A stretch of 64,000 nt of DNA from Marispirochaeta sp. (lineage in GTDB: Bacteria > Spirochaetota > Spirochaetia > JC444 > Marispirochaetaceae), in NCBI GenBank assembly GCA_963676835.2, contig CAXXFF010000003.1, positions 352,001 to 416,000 of the forward strand, written 5' to 3'. Every line of letters begins with the position of its first letter. Position 1 is the first letter of the stretch. The notes below the pieces were generated by a model. That model searched no databases and was not told where the DNA came from. It saw nothing but the letters and a program-made list of their open reading frames with translations. A program made the translations under genes and the position numbers. Shown here in pieces: positions 46,947 through 59,073 of this stretch.

Positions 46947-47112
46947 CCCGGGCGTCACCCGGCCACATGCTCACGCATGCGGCCGGGTCGGGCCTTGCGG
47001 GGCTCCGGCCCCTGCACCTAAATCCTATATCAGCTATTTTTATATACGAGGGCTCTACAGTAAGGATTTAGGTGCAGGGTCTGCCTCCGGCACCCCTCCA
47101 GTCCCTGACGCG
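46947..47112 (+). repeat. REP-like GC-rich palindromic element containing a 70-bp IR-bounded insert (47010-47079)
   Basis: CCCGGCC...GGCCGGG stem, GGGG/CCCC stem, GGGCGTCA...TGACGC ends; inner 17-bp perfect IR CCCTGCACCTAAATCCT/AGGATTTAGGTGCAGGG. Confidence 0.6.
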
Positions 47113-47246
47113 AAGGCAAGTGTAGAGCTTCTTACATGCGATTTCCCCTGTACAGCCTTCACTCACCTGCATTGCAGTTATTTTACCGGTGCACCGGACT
47201 TTACGAGAACCTCAGCAGTTCCCATCGGCTCCCGCAGGATTACCGC

Positions 47247-50200
47247 TTATCGGGCTTTAATCCCCAGGGGAAAATCATTCCCGAACATAAAAGTTGTTGG
47301 AAATTGAATACTGCTTTTATACCGTTCAGAAAGATTCGGGACCGCCTCGTCTATGTACAAACGCAGACTGGAAGCGGTTATCCTCCCGTCCCGGGTGGCA
47401 GCCTCTCCGCTGATTCCCTGAATAAGCGCATAGGTAAAAACCCCGTGCCCGAGCTGTGCAACCTCAGAGGCAAACTGTTCGTCATTGGTGGCTGTTAAAA
47501 TCACCGAACCGCTGGCCCGGGCAAGCTGCTTCAGGGCGATCTCTTCAGCCGCGCCGCGTACAGCAAAACCTTCCGCAAAAGCGCCGGAATTGCAGGCATC
47601 CACCAGAATCATTTGCTTGGTTGCAGGAATAGCTGAAAGCCGTTCCCGGAATTCGGCAGAGGACAAGCCGTGGGAGAGAATATTGTCGGTCCGGGTCATC
47701 TGGGTAACCTCGGGCAACACAAAATAGAAGCTGTTTTTCCCCTCATCCTCCATGGCTATCCCGTGACCAGCATAATAGAGAACAAACACATCATCCGGCT
47801 TCGAAGATGAAGTTACCTGATCAAGCATGCGTATAACATTTTCCCGGGTCAGGTTTTGTTCATACAGACTGGTTATCCTCACATTCCCGAAAAGTGTGGA
47901 TGAAGCCTGTCTAATAGAGGTCTCAAATGCCTTCGCATCAGCCAGTGCATAATTCAAATTGTATCTTGGATTTTTGTAGGAGTTAGCGCCAAGAATTACT
48001 GCATACAAATCCGGTTTTCCAGAGGAAGAAGACTGGTAACGGGCGGTAAAAGCTGCGGGAATACTCTGGGTTCGTTCACTGCTGAAGGCAACTGCAGAAA
48101 CCGTATTGTCGCCATTTGCAAGGGATATGGTAAAATACTCAACCACAGAGCCGGATGCTGCTGACCGCTGCAAACCTCTTACATTCCTTTCCAGAGCCTT
48201 GTTGTTGAGGTACAGCAGCATATTATCTATCCCCCCTCCCTGATCAACCGCTGTTACCTTTAACTCCAGCTGACCTTTAAATGATCCCGGAACAGAAAAG
48301 AGATTACCCGGAGTTATATATGCACCGTTTTCATTCTTCACTTCAACAGTAACCCTGGGCGGCAGGGAAATCCCGTCCTGTATCGATGCGTTCTGGTACT
48401 GCTGATACTCTTTCCCCTGAATAATAGCCGCCACAATATCAGGGCGGTTATACTTTTCAAAAAACGAGTCTATAGGATAGCAGTTCACACCCTCAACTAC
48501 GTAAATATCATTTCTGGCAATAGAATCGGAGCCTTGAAAATAACCTTCCGGAGTCCAGGTAAGCCAGTCGCCGGATTGCTGGGTAAAAGTGTATGAGAGA
48601 TCTTCCCCTGTCTGAATATTCATTAATTCAACCAGTCCGGAACTATGCGTTCTAAAAACAAGCTTGCTGCCGTCAGGGCTGAGCTCTCCGTAGGAGATCC
48701 AGTGGTACCTTTCAAATTCCCGCTTAATCCTTCCAGTTGCAGTTTCAAGGACGGTAAAGCCTATATCCCGGACAAACAGCACCATTTCACCTGTTCTTTC
48801 GGAAAAGGCTGTCCCATCAATGGTTTGAAATTGAGAAGAAAACTGACTTTTTGAAAAGGAATACCTCCAAATGAGATCTCCGGTCAAAAAGTCGTTGCAA
48901 TATAAAGAATGGTCCGAGGCATTACTATCGCTGCCCCAGAAAAGATATTTCCCATCAGAAGACATACTGAAAATGGCATCGTTACCCGGCGTATTCAGGG
49001 AGTAAGGTAGGGAATTACCCGTAGCGACATCAATCATTCGGTATTTGTTAATGTGCTGACCACTCTGATATTCCTTATAAACCAACCGATTAATTTCCGG
49101 ATGTACAAAAATCCGTCCTTTAATATTTTCTTTTTTCCACAGAAGTCTTCCGGTTGCAGTATCCAGTACTTCTATTGTATCGTTACTGAAGGATTTAAAA
49201 ACTTCATAGCGGCCGTCACCGGTAATGGCTGAGTAATCATTTATTCCAGGCTTTCTATGGGTCTGTACCTGAGCATCCGCATTCCTGCTGATAAGCTGCA
49301 TGCTGTCTGCACTAAATTCCCATTCAACATCCCGTTGCCCAATAAGAATAGATTTTCCATCATCACTGAAGTTGACGTCATAGATATTCTGCATGGTTAT
49401 ACCACCGAGGGATCCTTCCTGATGGCCATTGCTTCTATTCCAGAATTTTATTTCGTTTGTTCTGCTTTTAGTAATCAGATAATTCTGATATTTATCATAA
49501 CAACGAAAATAAATGTTGCTGTCATAAGTATTTGAATGAGGATCATCTGTTTTTACTCTGTAGAGTTTATTTGTTGTAAGGTTGTATCTTTTTAAACCAG
49601 GTAGACGTAAAGTTGATCCTTCATAGAATACATAATCCCCATCTTGGGAATGGATAATTTCACTGATGCTGAGAGCACCAGCGCCACCAATATCTTCCAA
49701 TCGGGTCCAGGTGTTCGTATTCAGGTCCCAAACACCTACATAATGTGTATACGGATTTTCCTGCCTTTCTGTTCCAATAATCTTTGAGAAATTACCAACT
49801 TTTGGATAAATCTCGATACCATCAATCGTTTTATATTCATTTGCCGTAAAAGTGTCTTTGCTCCATCGTTCCAAATAAGTGTTTCCATGTAAGTGGTATG
49901 CCAAAAGAAAATTACCATCATGGTCGCAATCAATAACCTCATGGGTATTCCAGAAATTAAAATCCTTAATCATTTGGCCAGTCGCCGTACTATAAATTCT
50001 TACCCAACTCTGCTTCTGTCCTTTGAAAATGACACCGGTAACAATAAGATATCTGTTGTCATATGAAAACTTAGCCGAAAATGTCCTGTCCATGGGCCCT
50101 TCAAGCTTGACTTCATTTCCTGTTTGAAGGTTTATCAGTGACGATATTTTCCCCCCGCCAAGATAATACATACTGCTGTCAGGGGAAAATTCAATAATAA

Positions 50201-50459
50201 CACTCCCCCCTCCGCTGTCATGTACATGTTCCCGAATACTGGCCCCGGTATTCCTGTAATCCCATAAAATAGATTTATCCCCTCCCCAGGACATCAGATA
50301 TTTACCATCCGGGCTTATCTTAACCAGGTTCGGGGAGCTTGAATGGCCAAGGTTAACCCTTACTTCAGCAGGCGAATTGTTTATGTTCTGTGAATATACA
50401 TTGATTAAAATGCTTATGGAGAAAAAGAGAAAAAACCCCAGTTTTTTATAGTTTTTCAT
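47247..50459 (-). CDS. Secreted WD40/beta-propeller protein with C-terminal caspase-like (peptidase C14) domain
   Basis: Signal peptide; SPDGKY repeats; WLTWTPEGYF; LNYALADA; YAGHG and DACNSG catalytic dyad; GHGVFTYAL. Confidence 0.88.
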   Translation of the reverse strand: MKNYKKLGFFLFFSISILINVYSQNINNSPAEVRVNLGHSSSPNLVKISPDGKYLMSWGGDKSILWDYRNTGASIREHVHDSGGGSVIIEFSPDSSMYYLGGGKISSLINLQTGNEVKLEGPMDRTFSAKFSYDNRYLIVTGVIFKGQKQSWVRIYSTATGQMIKDFNFWNTHEVIDCDHDGNFLLAYHLHGNTYLERWSKDTFTANEYKTIDGIEIYPKVGNFSKIIGTERQENPYTHYVGVWDLNTNTWTRLEDIGGAGALSISEIIHSQDGDYVFYEGSTLRLPGLKRYNLTTNKLYRVKTDDPHSNTYDSNIYFRCYDKYQNYLITKSRTNEIKFWNRSNGHQEGSLGGITMQNIYDVNFSDDGKSILIGQRDVEWEFSADSMQLISRNADAQVQTHRKPGINDYSAITGDGRYEVFKSFSNDTIEVLDTATGRLLWKKENIKGRIFVHPEINRLVYKEYQSGQHINKYRMIDVATGNSLPYSLNTPGNDAIFSMSSDGKYLFWGSDSNASDHSLYCNDFLTGDLIWRYSFSKSQFSSQFQTIDGTAFSERTGEMVLFVRDIGFTVLETATGRIKREFERYHWISYGELSPDGSKLVFRTHSSGLVELMNIQTGEDLSYTFTQQSGDWLTWTPEGYFQGSDSIARNDIYVVEGVNCYPIDSFFEKYNRPDIVAAIIQGKEYQQYQNASIQDGISLPPRVTVEVKNENGAYITPGNLFSVPGSFKGQLELKVTAVDQGGGIDNMLLYLNNKALERNVRGLQRSAASGSVVEYFTISLANGDNTVSAVAFSSERTQSIPAAFTARYQSSSSGKPDLYAVILGANSYKNPRYNLNYALADAKAFETSIRQASSTLFGNVRITSLYEQNLTRENVIRMLDQVTSSSKPDDVFVLYYAGHGIAMEDEGKNSFYFVLPEVTQMTRTDNILSHGLSSAEFRERLSAIPATKQMILVDACNSGAFAEGFAVRGAAEEIALKQLARASGSVILTATNDEQFASEVAQLGHGVFTYALIQGISGEAATRDGRITASSLRLYIDEAVPNLSERYKSSIQFPTTFMFGNDFPLGIKAR

Positions 50460-50863
50460 GGAATAAGGCTCCTGTTGATCATTGCAATAAGATAAAACCG
50501 CAGGACAGCTTCAGTATTCTGATAACTGTAACGAGTAGCATAATTAAATTCAATATGTGCAAAAATGTAACTGATTGATCTCTAATATTATTTATAAATG
50601 TTTAATTTTTTGTGATTTTTGTTATTTGCGTGAGCATCAGATAAGGAAGCAGAGAGTCGGAATAAATAACGGGAATTGCCTGACAATTATATGGCATTAT
50701 ATTTTAGGATTGACTTGAAGAATGGTTTAATCTACGCAGGCTCCGCTAGGCCGTAATCTTCGATTACCTTGTGTTCGCGCATTTGACCTTGCATAGTCGC
50801 GCTGATCTCAAAAATCGGCGGGCTTTTTGTAACCGTCAATTAAACCTCACCCAGAGAAAAAAA

Positions 50864-52384
50864 TCAGAGGGAAATATTCCATGGCAGCAATTTTTCCCAG
50901 TTATCAGATTCATTCATGAGTGGAGCTTCCTCAAAAACGCGTCTCAGGTAGTCGTTCGGGTTCACATTATTTTGTTTGGCTGTCTCAATCAGTGAATACA
51001 TGGCACAGGAACTTTCAGCCCCCTTTGGACTACCGGAAAATAACCAGTTCTTTCGGCCCAGAACAAACGGCCGAATAGCCTGTTCCGCGCTATTGTTGTC
51101 AGGTGTCAGATAGGGAGAATCGAGGTAGTGTACCAGTTTCTCCCATTCGTTCAAGGTGTACTGAATTGCTTTCCCAAGCAATAACGAAGGAGGAACCTGC
51201 TGACTGCGTTTTTCAAGCCAGGTTCTAAACTTCTGCAAAACCGGTTCCGCCTGAGATTTGCGCTGGTCAACAAACTGGTCTTCGGGCAATTCCATACTGC
51301 GAAGACGCTCTTCAATTCCATACAGTTTCCTGATGGCATTCAATGCTTCCTGTGCACTTGCTGCTTTCTTCGAGGCCTTTGCAGCTTCATGAAACTTTCG
51401 CCGAACATGGGCCATGCAGCCGACATGGACTATCTGTTCATTCCCCGCCAGGGCTGTACGATACGCATCATAGCCGTCGGTCTGTAAAAAGCCGCTGAAT
51501 CCATCGAGAAGTTCTTTAATATGCCGGGACCCGCGGGTTTCCCGGTATGAGTAAAGCAATCCCGGGTTTTCCGGAGGGCCGCCGCGGGCAAGCCACATAT
51601 AGGATTTCGCCGTGTCAGGGCGTTCCGGTTCTCCGTGTACCTGGACCGGGGTTTCATCCATGTTGATGACCGGCCCTGACCGGATATGCGTTTTCAGTGT
51701 TTCTATTAACGGTTCAATTTTATCAAACGCCGCCTGCTGCCAGTTGCTCATGTTCTGACGGCTTATGTGGATGCCGATTCTTTCAAACCGTTTCTCCTGC
51801 CGGTAATAGGGCAGATGATCGACAAACTTGTTCACTATGATGAAGGAGATCAATCCTGGCGTTACAATGCTTTTAGGGATAATACTTGCAGGGGGATCAG
51901 CAACCCTTACTGCCGGCTTCTCTTCATCCCCGGAGCCTTCACAGTTTTTACAGGCATACTTGGGGCGGATAATCCGTTCCACCCACATCTTCGGGGGGAT
52001 TACCTGTAAGCGCTCGCTGGTCTCTTCGCCGATACGAACCAGCGCATGGCCGCAGGCACACTGTTTTTCTTCTTCGGGAATATCAATGATGATCTCATCC
52101 CGGGGAAGGCTTTCATCAATTGGTTTTCTGCCGTATTTCCTGCGGGGATGGGACTGAACTGGTACGGAAGTCTCTGATGCATCGTTCTCCGAAGTACCAT
52201 TCTCTTCAAGTCCGAACAACAGCGGTTGATACTCATCCAGTTGTTCTTTTTCACTTTTACGGCCAAATTTCTGAAGAAGAAGCAATTTGTACTGCTCTTC
52301 CAAGGCACCATAACGCTGCTCCCAGGAAGTATTAAGTTCGTGGATATAGTCCTGTACTTCCCTGGGAAGTTCTGTAACATCCAT
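50864..52384 (-). CDS. tnpC: IS66 transposase TnpC
   Basis: FGRKSEK, C-x-C...C-x2-C, DHLPYYRQ, MDETP, CMAHVRRKF, DNNSAEQAIRP, GRKNWLF. Confidence 0.95.
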   Translation of the reverse strand: MDVTELPREVQDYIHELNTSWEQRYGALEEQYKLLLLQKFGRKSEKEQLDEYQPLLFGLEENGTSENDASETSVPVQSHPRRKYGRKPIDESLPRDEIIIDIPEEEKQCACGHALVRIGEETSERLQVIPPKMWVERIIRPKYACKNCEGSGDEEKPAVRVADPPASIIPKSIVTPGLISFIIVNKFVDHLPYYRQEKRFERIGIHISRQNMSNWQQAAFDKIEPLIETLKTHIRSGPVINMDETPVQVHGEPERPDTAKSYMWLARGGPPENPGLLYSYRETRGSRHIKELLDGFSGFLQTDGYDAYRTALAGNEQIVHVGCMAHVRRKFHEAAKASKKAASAQEALNAIRKLYGIEERLRSMELPEDQFVDQRKSQAEPVLQKFRTWLEKRSQQVPPSLLLGKAIQYTLNEWEKLVHYLDSPYLTPDNNSAEQAIRPFVLGRKNWLFSGSPKGAESSCAMYSLIETAKQNNVNPNDYLRRVFEEAPLMNESDNWEKLLPWNISL

Positions 52385-52445
52385 GCTAATAAGAATTCTA
52401 GCATGCCGTACATTCTATGTAAATTCCTTTACACCAATAAAATGC

Positions 52446-52793
52446 TTAAGAAACCCGCGAATATTCCAAACTAGTATGTTCATTCCAAAAATCGATGCCT
52501 TTCAACAGCATCGATAGCTGTTCCGGGGTAATCATACGTGCAGTTTCTTCGGTTACGGGCCAGGGAAACTTATGCTTTTCCAGTTTCTTCTGCCAGAGAC
52601 AGAATCCGTTCTTGTCCCAGTAGAGGGCTTTCATAATTCGTCGTTCGCGGTTGCAGAACAGAAACAGATTGCCGCTTAACGGATTTTCATTCATATAGTC
52701 CTGCACCATGACAACTAAGCCGTTGATTGCTTTACGCATATCAGTGATGCCTGGCCGGATAAATATCTGTACCGCTGATAATTCTGGGGTCAT
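52446..52793 (-). CDS. tnpB: IS66 accessory protein TnpB
   Basis: TDMRKAINGL, LFLFCNRER, LYWDKNGFCLWQKKLE. Confidence 0.93.
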   Translation of the reverse strand: MTPELSAVQIFIRPGITDMRKAINGLVVMVQDYMNENPLSGNLFLFCNRERRIMKALYWDKNGFCLWQKKLEKHKFPWPVTEETARMITPEQLSMLLKGIDFWNEHTSLEYSRVS

Positions 52794-53119
52794 TCATAAA
52801 CCCTCAAGGCTGTTAATACTGCTTTAAGCTGGTCATGGTTTGCTGTTACCGGCAGAGTAATAACAATATCGTGCAACTTTATGGTAATGGTTTCTTTTTT
52901 GGATAAATGATGAAAAGAGCTTTTTACTGGTATGAACCGGGCTGCTGCTGTTTCAGAGCCTATTCCGGTTTGTACGGCACGTTTCCTTTCGGCTTTTTTC
53001 CAGCTGTAAAATGTTGTGGGTGGTATTTCGTGCTGCCGGCAATACACCTGCCCGCTTAACCCACTTTTTTCCCAATTTCTGAGATGTTCACTCTGCTGTT
53101 CCCGGTTATATTTGACCAT
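52790..53119 (-). CDS. tnpA: IS66 accessory protein TnpA
   Basis: WEKSGLSGQVYCRQHEI...TFYSWKK HTH; FIPV. Confidence 0.88.
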   Translation of the reverse strand: MVKYNREQQSEHLRNWEKSGLSGQVYCRQHEIPPTTFYSWKKAERKRAVQTGIGSETAAARFIPVKSSFHHLSKKETITIKLHDIVITLPVTANHDQLKAVLTALRVYE

Positions 53120-53297
53120 GCGATTCCTCCATTAAGGGAGGATTGTAGGGCATTCATTGATGTCGGCATAAGGTGGGGTTTAATTGACGGTTACGTTTAA
53201 TTGACGGTTACGTTACTTTGGCTGCGCCAAGCCGCGCTGATCTGCGACGTCGCCTGGCTTTTTTTTGTCCAACGGTAAAACCGTTTGGACAAAAAAA

Positions 53298-53409
53298 AGC
53301 CAGGCGACGTCCTACTCTCCCGCTTTCGCAGTACCATCGGCGCTGAAGGGCTTAACTTCCGTGTTCGACATGGGAACGGGTGGATCCCCTTCGCTAAGGT
53401 CACCTGGCA
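53298..53409 (-). rRNA. rrf: 5S rRNA
   Basis: Reverse complement GCCAGGTGACC...CCCATGTCGAACACGGAAGTTAAG...GCCGATGGTACTG...GGGAGAGTAGGACGTCGCCTGGC; ends approximate. Confidence 0.93.
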
Positions 53410-54011
53410 ATAATTACCATTTTACGGTCACCATCGGGGTGTACCCCTCCGGCTTCCTTTGTTCAAGCTACTCACAGGTCAGCAAAGCCGCCTGTTCGTA
53501 TTGAACGTTTAGTGCGTCTATCCTAAAAGGATAAACTATTTTGTTTTTGTCTTTCGACTATAGAGCACATACTCAGTAACTGTTTAATCAGCTCTGAAAA
53601 ACGGTCGGGTCCCCCGACCGGCTTTTCATTCGTCGGGCAGAGGGTAGTCGATGGAGTACTCTCCAGCGACGACCGTAAAAGGAGAAGAAGCACACAATAA
53701 TATGGTCAAGCCTCACGACTAATTAGTACTGGTCAGCTGAACATGTTACCATGCTTAGACCGCCAGCCTATCAACCAGATCTTCTCTCTGGTGTCTTCAG
53801 GGACCTTAAAGGCCCTGGGATGTCTCATCTCGAGGGGGGCTTCCCACTTAGATGCCTTCAGCGGTTATCCCGACCGAACTTGGCTACCCAGCACTTACCC
53901 TTGGCAGGATAACTGGTACACCAGAGGTTCGTCCATTCCGGTCCTCTCGTACTAAGAACAGATCCTCTCAAACATCCAACGCCTGTGGCAGATAGGGACC
54001 GAACTGTCTCG

Positions 54012-54076
<65 letters not shown>

Positions 54077-54077
54077 C

Positions 54078-54117
<40 letters not shown>

Positions 54118-54323
54118 TTTGCCGTCGATATGAACTCTTGGGCAAAATCAGCCTGTTATCCCCGGAGTACCTTTTGTCCGTTAAGTGACGGCCCTTCCAC
54201 TCAGAACCGCCAGATCACTAAGACCTACTTTCGTACCTGCTCGACATGTACGTCTCGCAGTCAAGCAACCTTGTGCCTTTGCACTCGTACATTGATTTCC
54301 AACCAATGCGAGGTTACCTTCGC

Positions 54324-54365
<42 letters not shown>

Positions 54366-54636
54366 CGCCCACCTGACATTGTCCACGTACCCGCTTCAGG
54401 GCACCCGTTAGAAATATAACTTGCAAAGGGAGGTATTTCACCAACGACTCTGCGCAACCTAGCGACCACGCTTCTTAGTCTCCCTCCTATCCTACACATT
54501 ACAAGCCACATTTCAATGCCAAGCTACAGTAAAGGTTCACGGGGTCTTTCCGTCTAACCACAGGTAATCGGCATCTTCACCGATACTTCAATTTCACCGG
54601 GTTTCACGTTGAGACAGCGTTCAAGTCGTTACACCA

Positions 54637-54710
<74 letters not shown>

Positions 54711-55406
54711 TGGGGCTTCAATTCGACGCTCTCACATCTCCTCTTAACCTTCCAGCACCGGGCAGGTGTCAGTCCCTATACTTCATCTTGCGATTTAGCA
54801 GAGACCTGTGTTTTTGGTAAACAGTCGCTTGAACCTTTTCTCTGCAACCCCTAACAAACTTTAACATCCATCGGGGGCCACACTTCTCCCTAAGTTACGT
54901 GTGTATTTTGCCGAGTTCCTTAACGTGAATTCTCCCGAGCGCCTTAGAATACTCATCCCGCCTACCTGTGTCGGTTTGCGGTACGGTCCCTTACAGCATA
55001 TCTTTAGAAGCTATTTCTCGGCACCTTGATCCCACCAGCTTCGCTCGTCCGTAGACTCACTCGTCTTAACACCTCGTCTCAAACTGCGGATTTACCTGCA
55101 GCTCTCAACAACTAAGTGCTTAAACCGGGACAACCATCGCCCGGCCTGGCTTCGCCTAATGCGTCGCTCCATCAGTCCTGTAAGAGGTACGGGAATATTA
55201 ACCCGTTTCCCATCGACTACGCCTTTCGGCCTCGCCTTAGGGGCCGACTAACCCTTGGGCAGATTACCTTAACCCTGGAATCCTTAGGCTTTCGGCGGAC
55301 AGGGATCTCACCTGTCTTTTCGTTACTCATGCCTGCATTCTCTCTTCCATCCCCTCCAGCATCCCTTTCAGGACACCTTCAACAGTACATGGAATGCTCC
55401 TCTACC

Positions 55407-55708
55407 CCCTGCACCTATTTAAAATCACCAGTTATTAGACTATTCGATATTCGTTCGAGCATTTGACGTCTTGCTCGTCCGTCTTTTAATCGCTTTTCAC
55501 GTTTTTGCGCATCAGATTTGCTTAAGTATGCTTCATAATACACTAAATGCCATTCGTCATTTTTTGTGTACGGGCTTAGTTTCCCTTCATGCTCACTCAT
55601 TCGTCTTTTAAGATCACTTGTATAACCAATATACACATGCTCTTTTTGACTCTTCAGCACATAAACGTAATACATAATCTAACCTCGTAATTTTAAATAG
55701 GTGCAGGG
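55407..55708 (-). other. 23S rRNA intervening sequence (helix 45 position) bounded by a 19-bp perfect inverted repeat
   Basis: Lies between CGAAGCTACGG and GGTAGAGGAGC on the rRNA strand; CCCTGCACCTATTTAAAAT/ATTTTAAATAGGTGCAGGG. Confidence 0.88.
55415..55675 (-). CDS. Single-domain GIY-YIG nuclease encoded within the 23S IVS
   Basis: YYVYVL...VYIGYTSDLKRR..EH...YTK...LVYYE...DAQKRE; SD GAGG; same sense as the rRNA; stop TAG lies inside the IR. Confidence 0.85.
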   Translation of the reverse strand: MYYVYVLKSQKEHVYIGYTSDLKRRMSEHEGKLSPYTKNDEWHLVYYEAYLSKSDAQKREKRLKDGRARRQMLERISNSLITGDFK

Positions 55709-55758
55709 CCGTAGCTTCGGTACTATGCTTAGCCCCGTTACATTGTCGGCGCACAACG

Positions 55759-55793
<35 letters not shown>

Positions 55794-55794
55794 T

Positions 55795-55827
<33 letters not shown>

Positions 55828-56323
55828 TCGCCGTTGCACTTCCTTTTCCACTCGAGCATAGTTCTGAGACCTTAGCTGACGGTCTGGGCTGTTTCCCTCT
55901 TGACCACGAATCTTGTCACCCGTAGTCTGACTCCCGCGCATCATTTAACCGGCATTCGGAGTTTGACTGAGTTTGGTACCCGGTGAAGGGCCCTAGCCCA
56001 ATCAGTGCTCTACCTCCGGCAAACTAACGCGAGGCTAGCCCTAAAGCTATTTCGAGGAGTGCCAGCTATCTCCGAGTTTGATTAGCCTTTCACTCCTATC
56101 CACACCTCATCCCTGCCTTTTTCAACAGACTAGGGTTCGGTCCTCCACTTTGTGTTACCAAAGCTTCAACCTGGACATGGATAGATCACTCGGCTTCGGG
56201 TCTACCGCATGCTACTAAATCGCCCTATTCAGACTCGGTTTCCCTTCGGCTTCGGTACTTCTATACCTTAACCTCGCAACATACGGTAACTCGCAGGCTC
56301 ATTCTACAAAAGGCACGCCATCA

Positions 56324-56424
56324 CCCGGCACCTAAATCCCCCAAATAAGCTCTTCGTTTTCGCCTACTTGGCTTGTTTAGCTCTCTAAACACCAAGATTC
56401 TCATCTCAGGATTTAGGTGCCGGG
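56324..56424 (-). other. Second 23S insert/IVS (helix 25 position) bounded by a 16-bp perfect inverted repeat
   Basis: Lies between TACAAGCGGTCAAAG and TGATGGCGTGCC on the rRNA strand; CCCGGCACCTAAATCC/GGATTTAGGTGCCGGG. Confidence 0.78.
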
Positions 56425-57036
56425 CTTTGACCGCTTGTAGGTCCACGGTTTCAGGTTCTATTTCACTCCCCTCCCGGGGTGCTTTTCACCGTTCCCTCAC
56501 GGTACTATTCGCTATCGGTAGCTGTCTCGTATTTAGCCTTGGAAGGTGGTCCTCCCGGATTCAAACAGGATTTCTCGTGTCCCGTCCTACTCAGGTACGC
56601 GCTCAGCGCTCACTCATGTTTCGACTACGGGGCTTTCACCCTCTTTGACCGGCTTTTCCAATACCGTTCGTCTACACTTATAAGTCACCTTTATGCACGC
56701 CCTACAACCCCAGTGCGCATGCGTACTGGTTTGGGCTATATCCCGTTCGCTCGCCGCTACTCAGGATATCTCTTTTGATTTCTTTTCCTCTGGGTACTTA
56801 GATGGTTCAGTTCCCCAGGTATTGCTCATATATGCTATTTTATTCACATATATGTGACAGAGAGTCTACTCTGCCGGGTTACCCCATTCGGTGATCCAGG
56901 GTTCAATAGATGTTTGCTCCTACCCCTGGCTTTTCGCAGCTTACCACGACCTTCTTCGCCGGACAGCTCCAAGGCATCCTCCGTGGACCCTTATTCGCTT
57001 GACCATATTAGTTTGTGCTCCTTCTTTGGCGGTTGC

Positions 57037-57066
57037 CCCTGCACTAAATTATTATTTAGTGCAGGG
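57037..57066. repeat. Minimal hairpin copy of the same IR family in the rRNA spacer
   Basis: CCCTGCACTAAAT-TATT-ATTTAGTGCAGGG. Confidence 0.7.
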
Positions 57067-57294
57067 TCTCCCTTGGTGCTGTTGCGCAGTCTCAGAGTCG
57101 GCAAAGCCGCTCTTCGCTGCACGAAAGTCATCAAGAGTGTAGTCGCAGTTGCCCGCTAAACTACATTCGCAACCATCCCGAAACTCCCCTTTATGATGCA
57201 ACTACTTCCCATTTCGTTACACCGGTATGTTCCGGTTCTCTATGTCAAAAGATCGAAAAAAAATAACCTAAGTTTAAAACTTTGGTTATTGTTA

Positions 57295-57368
<74 letters not shown>

Positions 57369-57546
57369 GGATATATAAAGATAAGGGCGAAGATTTCCGC
57401 TTATTAAAAAGCAAGTTTACCTTGTATGTTTCATACTTATCCCGTCTGTATCCCATTTACAAAAGCTTTGTCAGACTTGCGTCTTAAAAAGCATCCGCTC
57501 AGCTTTAATGCTGATTGAGAACTATTCGTTCCAGTTCCCTTCTCGT

Positions 57547-59073
<1,527 letters not shown>

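Follow-up and report, generated by a model that had tools for sequence, protein, structure and literature searches.

The ribosomal RNA operon and its inserts

The 64,000-nucleotide stretch of Marispirochaeta sp. DNA analyzed here (contig CAXXFF010000003.1, positions 352,001 to 416,000; hereafter the window) harbors, on its minus strand, one of the four ribosomal RNA (rRNA) operons of a 4.43 Mb genome in four contigs (G000). The 23S rRNA gene of this operon is interrupted by a compact unit, bounded by a perfect inverted repeat (IR) and enclosing a gene for a small GIY-YIG protein, and it is this unit and its relatives that are described below (Table 1). Three further units with similar ends but without an open reading frame (ORF) are found in the same window, namely an insert in another helix of the 23S gene, a hairpin in the spacer upstream of it and a hairpin at 47 kb. 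A first-pass annotation had joined the four into one candidate element family, and its description was exact as regards the perfect IRs of 17, 19, 16 and 13 bp, the terminal motif CC[T/G]GCAC(C)TA[A/T], the stretch GCACCTAAATCC common to the 47 kb and helix-25 units, and the GC...TCT flanks common to the 47 kb and spacer units. It had also regarded the ORF-less units as derivatives of the window ORF, a suggestion to which a genome search lent no support, the interior of the helix-45 element matching only itself at E<1e-10.

Each unit includes, as its outermost base pair, the closing pair of the host; because this applies to the outer C-G pair at helix 45, the element proper spans 55408-55707. 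Its GC content is 37%, compared to 47-49% for the contigs, and the final codons and stop of the ORF lie within the distal IR arm. The helix-25 insert is predicted to fold into a 16-bp perfect IR stem with three inner hairpins. The helix names used here are what we take to be the standard numbering.

Table 1. Positions of the IR-bounded units, their parts and their hosts in the window (E. coli numbering for rRNA sites).
Feature	Position	Strand	Remarks
Full element in 23S rRNA	55407..55708	-	19-bp perfect IR; E. coli 1164-1185 (helix 45)
GIY-YIG ORF, 86 aa, single domain	55415..55675	-	rRNA sense strand
Shine-Dalgarno-like GAGG, 7 nt ahead of ATG	55683..55686	-	Read from the sequence; putative function
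Proximal IR arm of helix-45 element	55690..55708	-	
Distal IR arm of helix-45 element	55407..55425	-	
ORF-less insert, 101 bp, in 23S rRNA	56324..56424	-	E. coli 540-553 (helix 25)
Motif hairpin, 30 bp, in spacer directly upstream of 23S	57037..57066	-	13-bp perfect IR
ORF-less motif hairpin, 70 bp	47010..47079	.	17-bp perfect IR; one of 4 similar genome copies
CGTC-tagged host repeat around the 70-bp unit	46985..47112	-	
Host 23S rRNA gene	53702..57004	-	Rfam RF02541
16S rRNA gene	57549..59073	-	
tRNA gene	57295..57368	-	
5S rRNA gene	53299..53407	-	

Filled and empty alleles

At helix 45, only one of the four operons of G000 carries the insert, the other three having a 20-bp hairpin in its place. 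The junction is precise: the outer C-G pair is kept, the 18-nt native hairpin interior is lost and nothing is duplicated. Of the two modes of entry that had been proposed, insertion into hairpin tips and their replacement, it is thus replacement that is found, not the splitting of an intact tip. Contigs from public sequencing runs contain the same joint. An assembly artefact is unlikely, since one contig of run X2 reads through the whole insert with 0 differences (X1 and X2 belong to one study, possibly on the source sample, and X2 is in that sense not independent support) and an insert-skipping form occurs in all four runs examined. Among other genomes, 15 had a 23S match, and in all 12 that were readable at helix 45 it is a short hairpin. 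The 23S gene with the insert differs from that of the C1 operon at only nine positions outside the insert, of which two fall within 400 bp of its ends. Hence, no long foreign tract came along with the insert, or else the tract was later homogenised. A foreign rRNA tract had been considered on account of a 95% BLAST identity of the 5' part, which stems from the spacer and not from 23S.

At helix 25, the ORF-less insert is present in all four operons of G000, and a 101/102-bp homologue of it in one of the four operons of the congener G003. The remaining three operons of G003 have a short hairpin, as do G002, G004 and 10 class-level genomes. In the congener G001, by contrast, the same helix holds an element of 305 bp, bounded by a 22-bp IR, whose GIY-YIG gene is 51% identical to that of the window, and gene-filled helices 25 were also found in G509, a Dojkabacteria contig and three metagenome contigs. 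The filled/empty polymorphism on which the first-pass annotation had staked its proposal is hence seen at both sites, helix 25 being empty, ORF-less or gene-filled among congeners. In the spacer upstream of 23S, different hairpins lie between the same flanks in G002 and G003. Located in helices 25 and 45, equipped with a terminal stem and sporadically filled or empty, the two rRNA inserts are intervening sequences (IVSs) by position.

The end motif in the genome and its congeners

In a genome-wide census of perfect IRs, taken with arms of 12 bp or more within 700 bp, CC.GCAC was the commonest arm-end pattern, with 19 out of 398 IRs compared to 0 out of 267 in a Markov-3 control genome, and chance hairpins were rejected on these figures. 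The 19 IRs reduce to nine distinct contexts, because four are operon copies, seven belong to one repeat and the 47 kb type recurs. These contexts, which go beyond the four sites first noticed, are helix 45, helix 25, the spacer, the 47 kb type, a dispersed repeat of ~190 bp, the rplK leader and another three intergenic sites. Three alternative hairpins are found at the center of the ~190-bp repeat, one with the motif (8 copies) and two others (6 and 3 copies). This repeat, located at C1:401340-401515 and in 16 other places, has a terminal IR of its own (GGCACCTCTAAAAAC-like) and occurs also in G003. A tandem pair of motif hairpins was seen upstream of a gene at C4:490904-491011.

All four genome copies of the 47 kb type are filled and nested in the CGTC-tagged repeat. 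No empty host copy of this site was found with a class-wide pattern, which missed the genome's own copies as well, and the exact 47 kb pattern was absent from all five congeners. In the window, the repeat sits between a serine dehydratase gene and a gene for a beta-propeller/caspase-domain protein, and gave no match to Flavo-1; a similar repeat of G003 matches Flavo-1 at 42.4 bits (cut-off 42).

The congener G003 harbors at least 10 short motif hairpins, hosted by RNase P RNA, a flavin mononucleotide (FMN) riboswitch, a Flavo-1 repeat, the rplK leader, a CGTC-tagged repeat and five ~190-bp repeats. The orthologous positions of G000 hold other hairpins in the case of RNase P, FMN and two of the repeats, while the rplK hairpin is shared. 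Neither protein nor profile searches identified a GIY-YIG gene in G003. A GCTA-type variant of the motif is common to the full element of G001, RNase P, the rplK leader and one hairpin type of the ~190-bp repeat. In the RNase P RNA of G000 (C1, near 59500; loci L181, L270-L272), the tip of one stem is kept and its whole base changed between congeners. One motif hairpin in G002 (L185) lies within coding sequence and was treated as chance. Instead of moving independently as miniature inverted-repeat transposable elements (MITEs), the short copies may represent scars or be carried along by other repeats.

Related elements in other genomes

Homologues of the window protein were analyzed in GTDB genomes, using the best 80 out of 256 (42-58% identity), which come from Patescibacteria, Omnitrophota, Planctomycetota, Desulfobacteraceae and others. 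Enclosure of homologous genes by the same kind of IR, another point raised at the outset, was borne out: a perfect IR of at least 11 bp encloses 35 of these 80, compared to 6 out of 1150 random intervals of equal length. Among metagenome loci, 44 of the 74 scored are IR-enclosed versus 2 out of 490 in the control, 6 of the 80 collected having been dropped at contig edges and several rows repeating GTDB loci. In a slightly wider search, 52 out of 91 clade members had an IR of at least 10 bp, with arms 260-414 bp apart, and 24 of these 52 elements carry CC.[GC]CAC. Viral contigs gave only one weak partial match.

The elements occupy a diverse assortment of sites. In E. coli numbering, the 23S targets are 539-554, 1163-1186, 1706-1752, 1866-1875, 2127-2170 and 2790, and the 16S targets 68-101, 160-208, 451 and 1436-1465; others are RNase P RNA and tRNA ends, as well as start codons and a DnaA-box-like sequence, both read by eye. 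In all 18 loci with flanks mapped to E. coli rRNA, the ORF is on the rRNA strand. ORFs that are 79-91% identical in DNA (L016, L031, L035), or 84-94% identical (L032, L036, L038, L039, L041), lie between flanks that are mostly 46-57% alike. Judged from these alignments, near-identical ORFs in unrelated flanks are something that homing to one site cannot give. The closely related elements L032, L036, L038, L041 and L044 sit, with unrelated flanks, in TGTGGATAA / TTATCCACA, a target that we take to be DnaA-box-like.

Duplications of at least 5 nt at the junctions were found in only 1 of 22 elements inside rRNA or RNase P (31/462 in a swapped-flank null), compared to 16 of 30 elsewhere (null 52/870), with lengths of 5-12 nt; two of the latter group, L006 and L075, are by eye also in RNA elements. 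L075 (2900-3330) appears by eye to have its element in a T-box leader, with no Rfam match there. Rfam searches of 20 non-rRNA loci gave only three distant tRNAs, and a search of eight further non-rRNA loci gave RNase P RNA. What these loci show is a compact IR-bounded unit at sites lacking homology to each other, standing in place of a hairpin interior in RNA genes and elsewhere accompanied by a short target duplication.

Clade members lacking an IR show another configuration. Nine of them (L013, L021, L045, L057, L065, L072, L078, L131, L135) have direct repeats of 22-57 nt on either side of the gene, several of which match tRNA ends, and duplicated tRNA ends were seen at some IR-less homologues located beside tRNA genes.

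The GIY-YIG protein

The 86-aa ORF is matched by the Pfam GIY-YIG domain (E 1.2e-14), its sole Pfam match above the cut-off, and is the single short GIY-YIG gene copy in the genome. Residues Y5, G17, E48, E60 and K64 are invariant in 60 homologues, and Y15, R25 and H29 are conserved in at least 90%. Out of these, the residues standing opposite the invariant Tyr, Tyr and Glu of Ssn-like proteins in an alignment are Y5, Y15 and E60, which are taken to match Y6, Y17 and E64 of SsnA, mutants of which lose cutting according to the relevant passages of Chenal et al. 2025 (PMC11893778).

A structure model (pLDDT 91) matches UPF0213 (YhbQ) first, then Slx1 and HIGLE (E 0.01-0.04), all well ahead of I-TevI and UvrC, and the best PDB sequence matches belong to the same group, the protein having earlier been noted for its YhbQ/SLX1-like size. 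Members of this group are cellular repair enzymes or unassigned proteins and are not known to be IR-bounded; Slx1 has extra domains, whereas the window protein is a bare GIY-YIG domain.

In a 45-row tree, the protein falls in a 25-row group (support 99/94), apart from 15 NTS/SRM-flanked proteins (99/98), a comparison in which SsnA itself lies outside the tree and the cd10448 identity of the 15 is judged from their flanks. A 115-row tree is a quick tree only. The published SRM pattern was found near 0 of the 91 genes of the clade, compared to 4 of 15 Ssn-like genes, and had no match within 500 bp on either side of the window gene. Ssn-like genes with NTS/SRM-like hairpins do occur in this phylum (L129, L132-L134, L136, L137, L140, L141, L143-L147, L149, L154).

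Other features of the window

Directly downstream of the 5S gene lies a complete IS66-family element with three ORFs (50864-53119). The sequence of its end, near 53151-53197, is repeated at about ten places in the genome, and beside it a 19-nt unit is duplicated in tandem (53181-53218); the core of this unit, GACGGTTAC, recurs in the other three operons, where it is part of the spacer hairpin. At 53247-53312, a U-rich hairpin is enclosed by an inverted repeat that reproduces the 3' end of the 5S gene. The spacer at 57010-57400 contains tRNA-Ile, as opposed to tRNA-Ala in the other three operons (C1, C3, C4; anticodons from sequence), where the duplicated 3' part of the tRNA-Ala spacers is split by a GC-rich repeat of ~130 bp. 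Finally, the protein encoded at 47247-50459 (1070 aa) combines beta-propeller repeats with a caspase (Peptidase_C14) domain.

Comparison with known systems

A close parallel is found in the bacterial 23S IVSs of e.g. Coxiella, Leptospira, Salmonella and Campylobacter, which are alike in the two helices used, the terminal IR stem, the small ORF, the low GC content and the patchy occurrence. The relevant passages of a 2016 paper call IVS origin and function unclear, report excision of the Coxiella IVS by RNase III, and describe its ORF as an S23 four-helix-bundle protein (PMC4990558), which is not a nuclease, unlike the conserved nuclease ORF here. Another difference is that the same ends recur outside rRNA in the present case.

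GIY-YIG ORFs in rRNA inserts have been described in bacteria of the candidate phyla radiation (CPR) by Tsurumaki et al. 2024 (PMC11270868), in passages that present these inserts as unlike group I/II introns and scattered over poorly conserved sites. They are probably the same elements. The term 'inverted repeat' is absent from the main text of that paper, and its relevant passages describe neither a motif at the ends nor copies outside rRNA, relatives lacking an ORF or a mechanism.

The Ssn nucleases (cd10448) of Chenal et al. 2025 are likewise bare GIY-YIG domains tied to a palindromic motif, and the passages on NTS-ssnA-NTS suggest a former mobile element (PMC11893778). The window protein resembles them as a single-domain GIY-YIG protein of ~90 aa with intact Tyr, Tyr and Glu. 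Membership was nevertheless rejected on the absent SRM/NTS flanks (0/91 in the clade) and the separate clade; the motif differs too, and in the present elements the gene lies within a single IR that takes the place of host hairpins. The word 'rRNA' occurs 0 times in the main text of the Ssn paper. As far as the relevant parts of the two papers go, the CPR rRNA non-intron GIY-YIG inserts (PMC11270868) and the hairpin-cutting Ssn family (PMC11893778) are partial prior art.

Several other candidates were rejected. No Rfam intron match was found in the window and the ORF fills 261 of the 302 bp, excluding a group I/II intron. An I-TevI-type homing endonuclease is contradicted by the length of only 86 aa, a TIGR01453 score of 15 bits (cut-off 56) and the many unrelated sites. 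A DDE insertion sequence or MITE would share the terminal IRs common to coding and non-coding copies, but there is no transposase domain, and the duplication is either missing or 5-12 nt, i.e. not fixed. Repetitive extragenic palindromes with their RAYT transposases (REP/RAYT) and IS200/IS605, like MITEs, have hairpin ends, one small enzyme and gene-less derivatives. REP/RAYT and IS200/IS605 were dismissed since GIY-YIG is the only domain here, and the CGTC tag is a feature of the host repeat rather than of the insert. REP/RAYT, IS200/IS605 and DDE elements use HUH-tyrosine or DDE transposases, and we know of no prokaryotic transposon family that uses a lone GIY-YIG nuclease. In a paper used for the REP/RAYT comparison (PMC3733652), 'GIY' and 'GCAC' occur 0 times. 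No description of an IR-bounded GIY-YIG family was found in a literature search that covered mainly open-access papers, and of these the main texts; subscription papers or supplements could hold one.

A probable nuclease-driven element and its alternatives

The 300-bp GIY-YIG unit is likely a selfish mobile element driven by its nuclease, and we would put the probability of this whole account at about 0.6. That the IR-bounded unit is mobile is a good deal firmer, indeed very probable, and the interpretation offered by the first-pass annotation is supported overall. In the proposed mechanism, nicks made by the nuclease in the DNA at the foot of folded hairpins would let host repair copy the element in, the CCNGCAC-like IR ends possibly serving as the recognition site of the enzyme by analogy with the NTS hairpin of its relative SsnA. 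At a hairpin target both arms would be exchanged, giving a swap without duplication, while staggered nicks and fill-in at an unstructured target would give a duplication of variable length. Since the IR would rebuild the RNA helix, as the predicted stems suggest, the insert could be tolerated, and it is likely cut from pre-23S RNA by RNase III as an intervening sequence, as in the Coxiella IVS. An RNase III gene is present in the genome; the RNA run examined, which holds other organisms, gave no depth over the helix-45 insert. With the ORF on the rRNA strand and its own putative GAGG ribosome-binding site, the gene could depend on host transcription for its expression. Motif hairpins of 27-101 bp would remain where the interior was lost or exchanged, and some of these may then spread passively within rRNA operons and other repeats.

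A number of observations weigh against this account. To our knowledge, the hydrolytic GIY-YIG domain has no joining activity, and integration must therefore be borrowed from the host. One gene copy in the genome means that there was no transposition burst, and only one of the five congeners was found to have the gene. Copy number does not track the gene, a point that the first-pass annotation had proposed to test, as G003 has its at least 10 short copies without a gene being found. Out of the 52 IR-bounded elements, 28 lack the strict CC.[GC]CAC motif, and 39 of the 91 clade members have no enclosing IR of at least 10 bp, many of them adjoining tRNA genes; related loci are moreover not independent counts. 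Within the window, the 30-bp spacer hairpin is the weakest member taken alone, and the match of the GC...TCT flanks is based on just two sites. Finally, the RNase P alleles show the same hairpin tip under different stem bases, which simple insertion followed by collapse fails to explain and which raises the possibility of arm conversion, considered below.

Out of the alternatives, the one that survives best, unlikely as we hold it to be, is a classical IVS with passive cargo. In that case, only homologous recombination or gene conversion would move the insert, the nuclease would be a passenger or a site-bound homing enzyme, and the motif hairpins elsewhere would be stems favored by the host. 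Helices 25 and 45 are indeed classical IVS sites, horizontal transfer of IVSs has been reported (PMC2801512, PMC4990558), the presence of the helix-25 insert in four out of four operons is what gene conversion would give, and the independence of copy number from the gene points the same way. Passive spread does not, however, account for near-identical ORFs at unrelated non-rRNA loci with duplications, nor for the use of at least nine different rRNA positions or the lack of a long foreign tract beside the helix-45 insert, and the GIY-YIG inserts in the pertinent passages of PMC11270868 are likewise scattered and outside homing.

Arm conversion, which we consider rather improbable, would have the nuclease nick long host hairpins and repair rewrite their basal arms to the motif, making the short copies overwritten host hairpins. 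It draws on the RNase P alleles of G000, G003 and G005, which share the tip AAATC...GATTT under their different stem bases, on the same series in the rplK leader, and on the GCTA-type variant that recurs from the G001 full element to the RNase P, rplK and ~190-bp repeat hairpins. Full elements, on the other hand, retain none of the native tip, and their movement would be left unexplained; compensatory drift of one old scar also fits, given that the motif types differ by about one indel and a few changes.

There is still less to be said for a domesticated Ssn-like system, i.e. a site-specific single-stranded DNA nuclease restricting incoming DNA at motif hairpins, its place in a repeat being incidental. 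SsnA is, in the passages on its activity, a single-domain GIY-YIG protein that binds a hairpin and cuts beside it (PMC11893778), and an SRM-flanked homologue shares 36% identity with the window protein. The two nonetheless fall in separate, well-supported clades, the SRM pattern is confined to the Ssn-like side of that comparison, a single IR encloses the gene in place of separate flanking hairpins, and only ~20 copies per genome and a patchy gene presence are found. Lastly, RNA-templated movement, in which a borrowed reverse transcriptase would, as in Penelope-like elements, copy excised IVS RNA into DNA where the nuclease has nicked, could draw on the sense-strand bias in RNA genes, the variable duplication length and the two reverse transcriptase genes of the genome, but is very improbable, as the element encodes no such enzyme, both ends are precise and none of the IR-bounded copies was seen to be truncated, an orientation antisense to an RNA gene is found in at least two copies (L059 at tRNA-His; L006 at RNase P, by eye), and the need for expression explains the sense bias equally.

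Implications

A nuclease-driven element family of this kind is likely both an undescribed kind of element and a source of rRNA intervening sequences. At about even odds, it constitutes a new class of prokaryotic transposable elements of ~260-320 bp, which would rank with the smallest autonomous ones conceivable, mobilised by a bare Slx1-like GIY-YIG nuclease that swaps hairpin tips, and a general source of rRNA intervening sequences as well as of hypervariable stems in RNase P, riboswitches and leaders. What is added here are empty alleles in the same genome together with exact replacement junctions, a series at one helix from empty to gene-filled within a genus, and the end motif in RNase P, riboswitch and leader stems. 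Hairpin exchange, if true, would provide a testable answer to where IVSs originate and how they arrive at new helices, and would explain the block-wise change of 'variable' stems in structured RNAs. Furthermore, a nuclease of 86 residues that is directed to hairpins and comes with numerous end variants in nature would, like Ssn, make a compact tool, and this Marispirochaeta genome offers natural donor and target sequences side by side.

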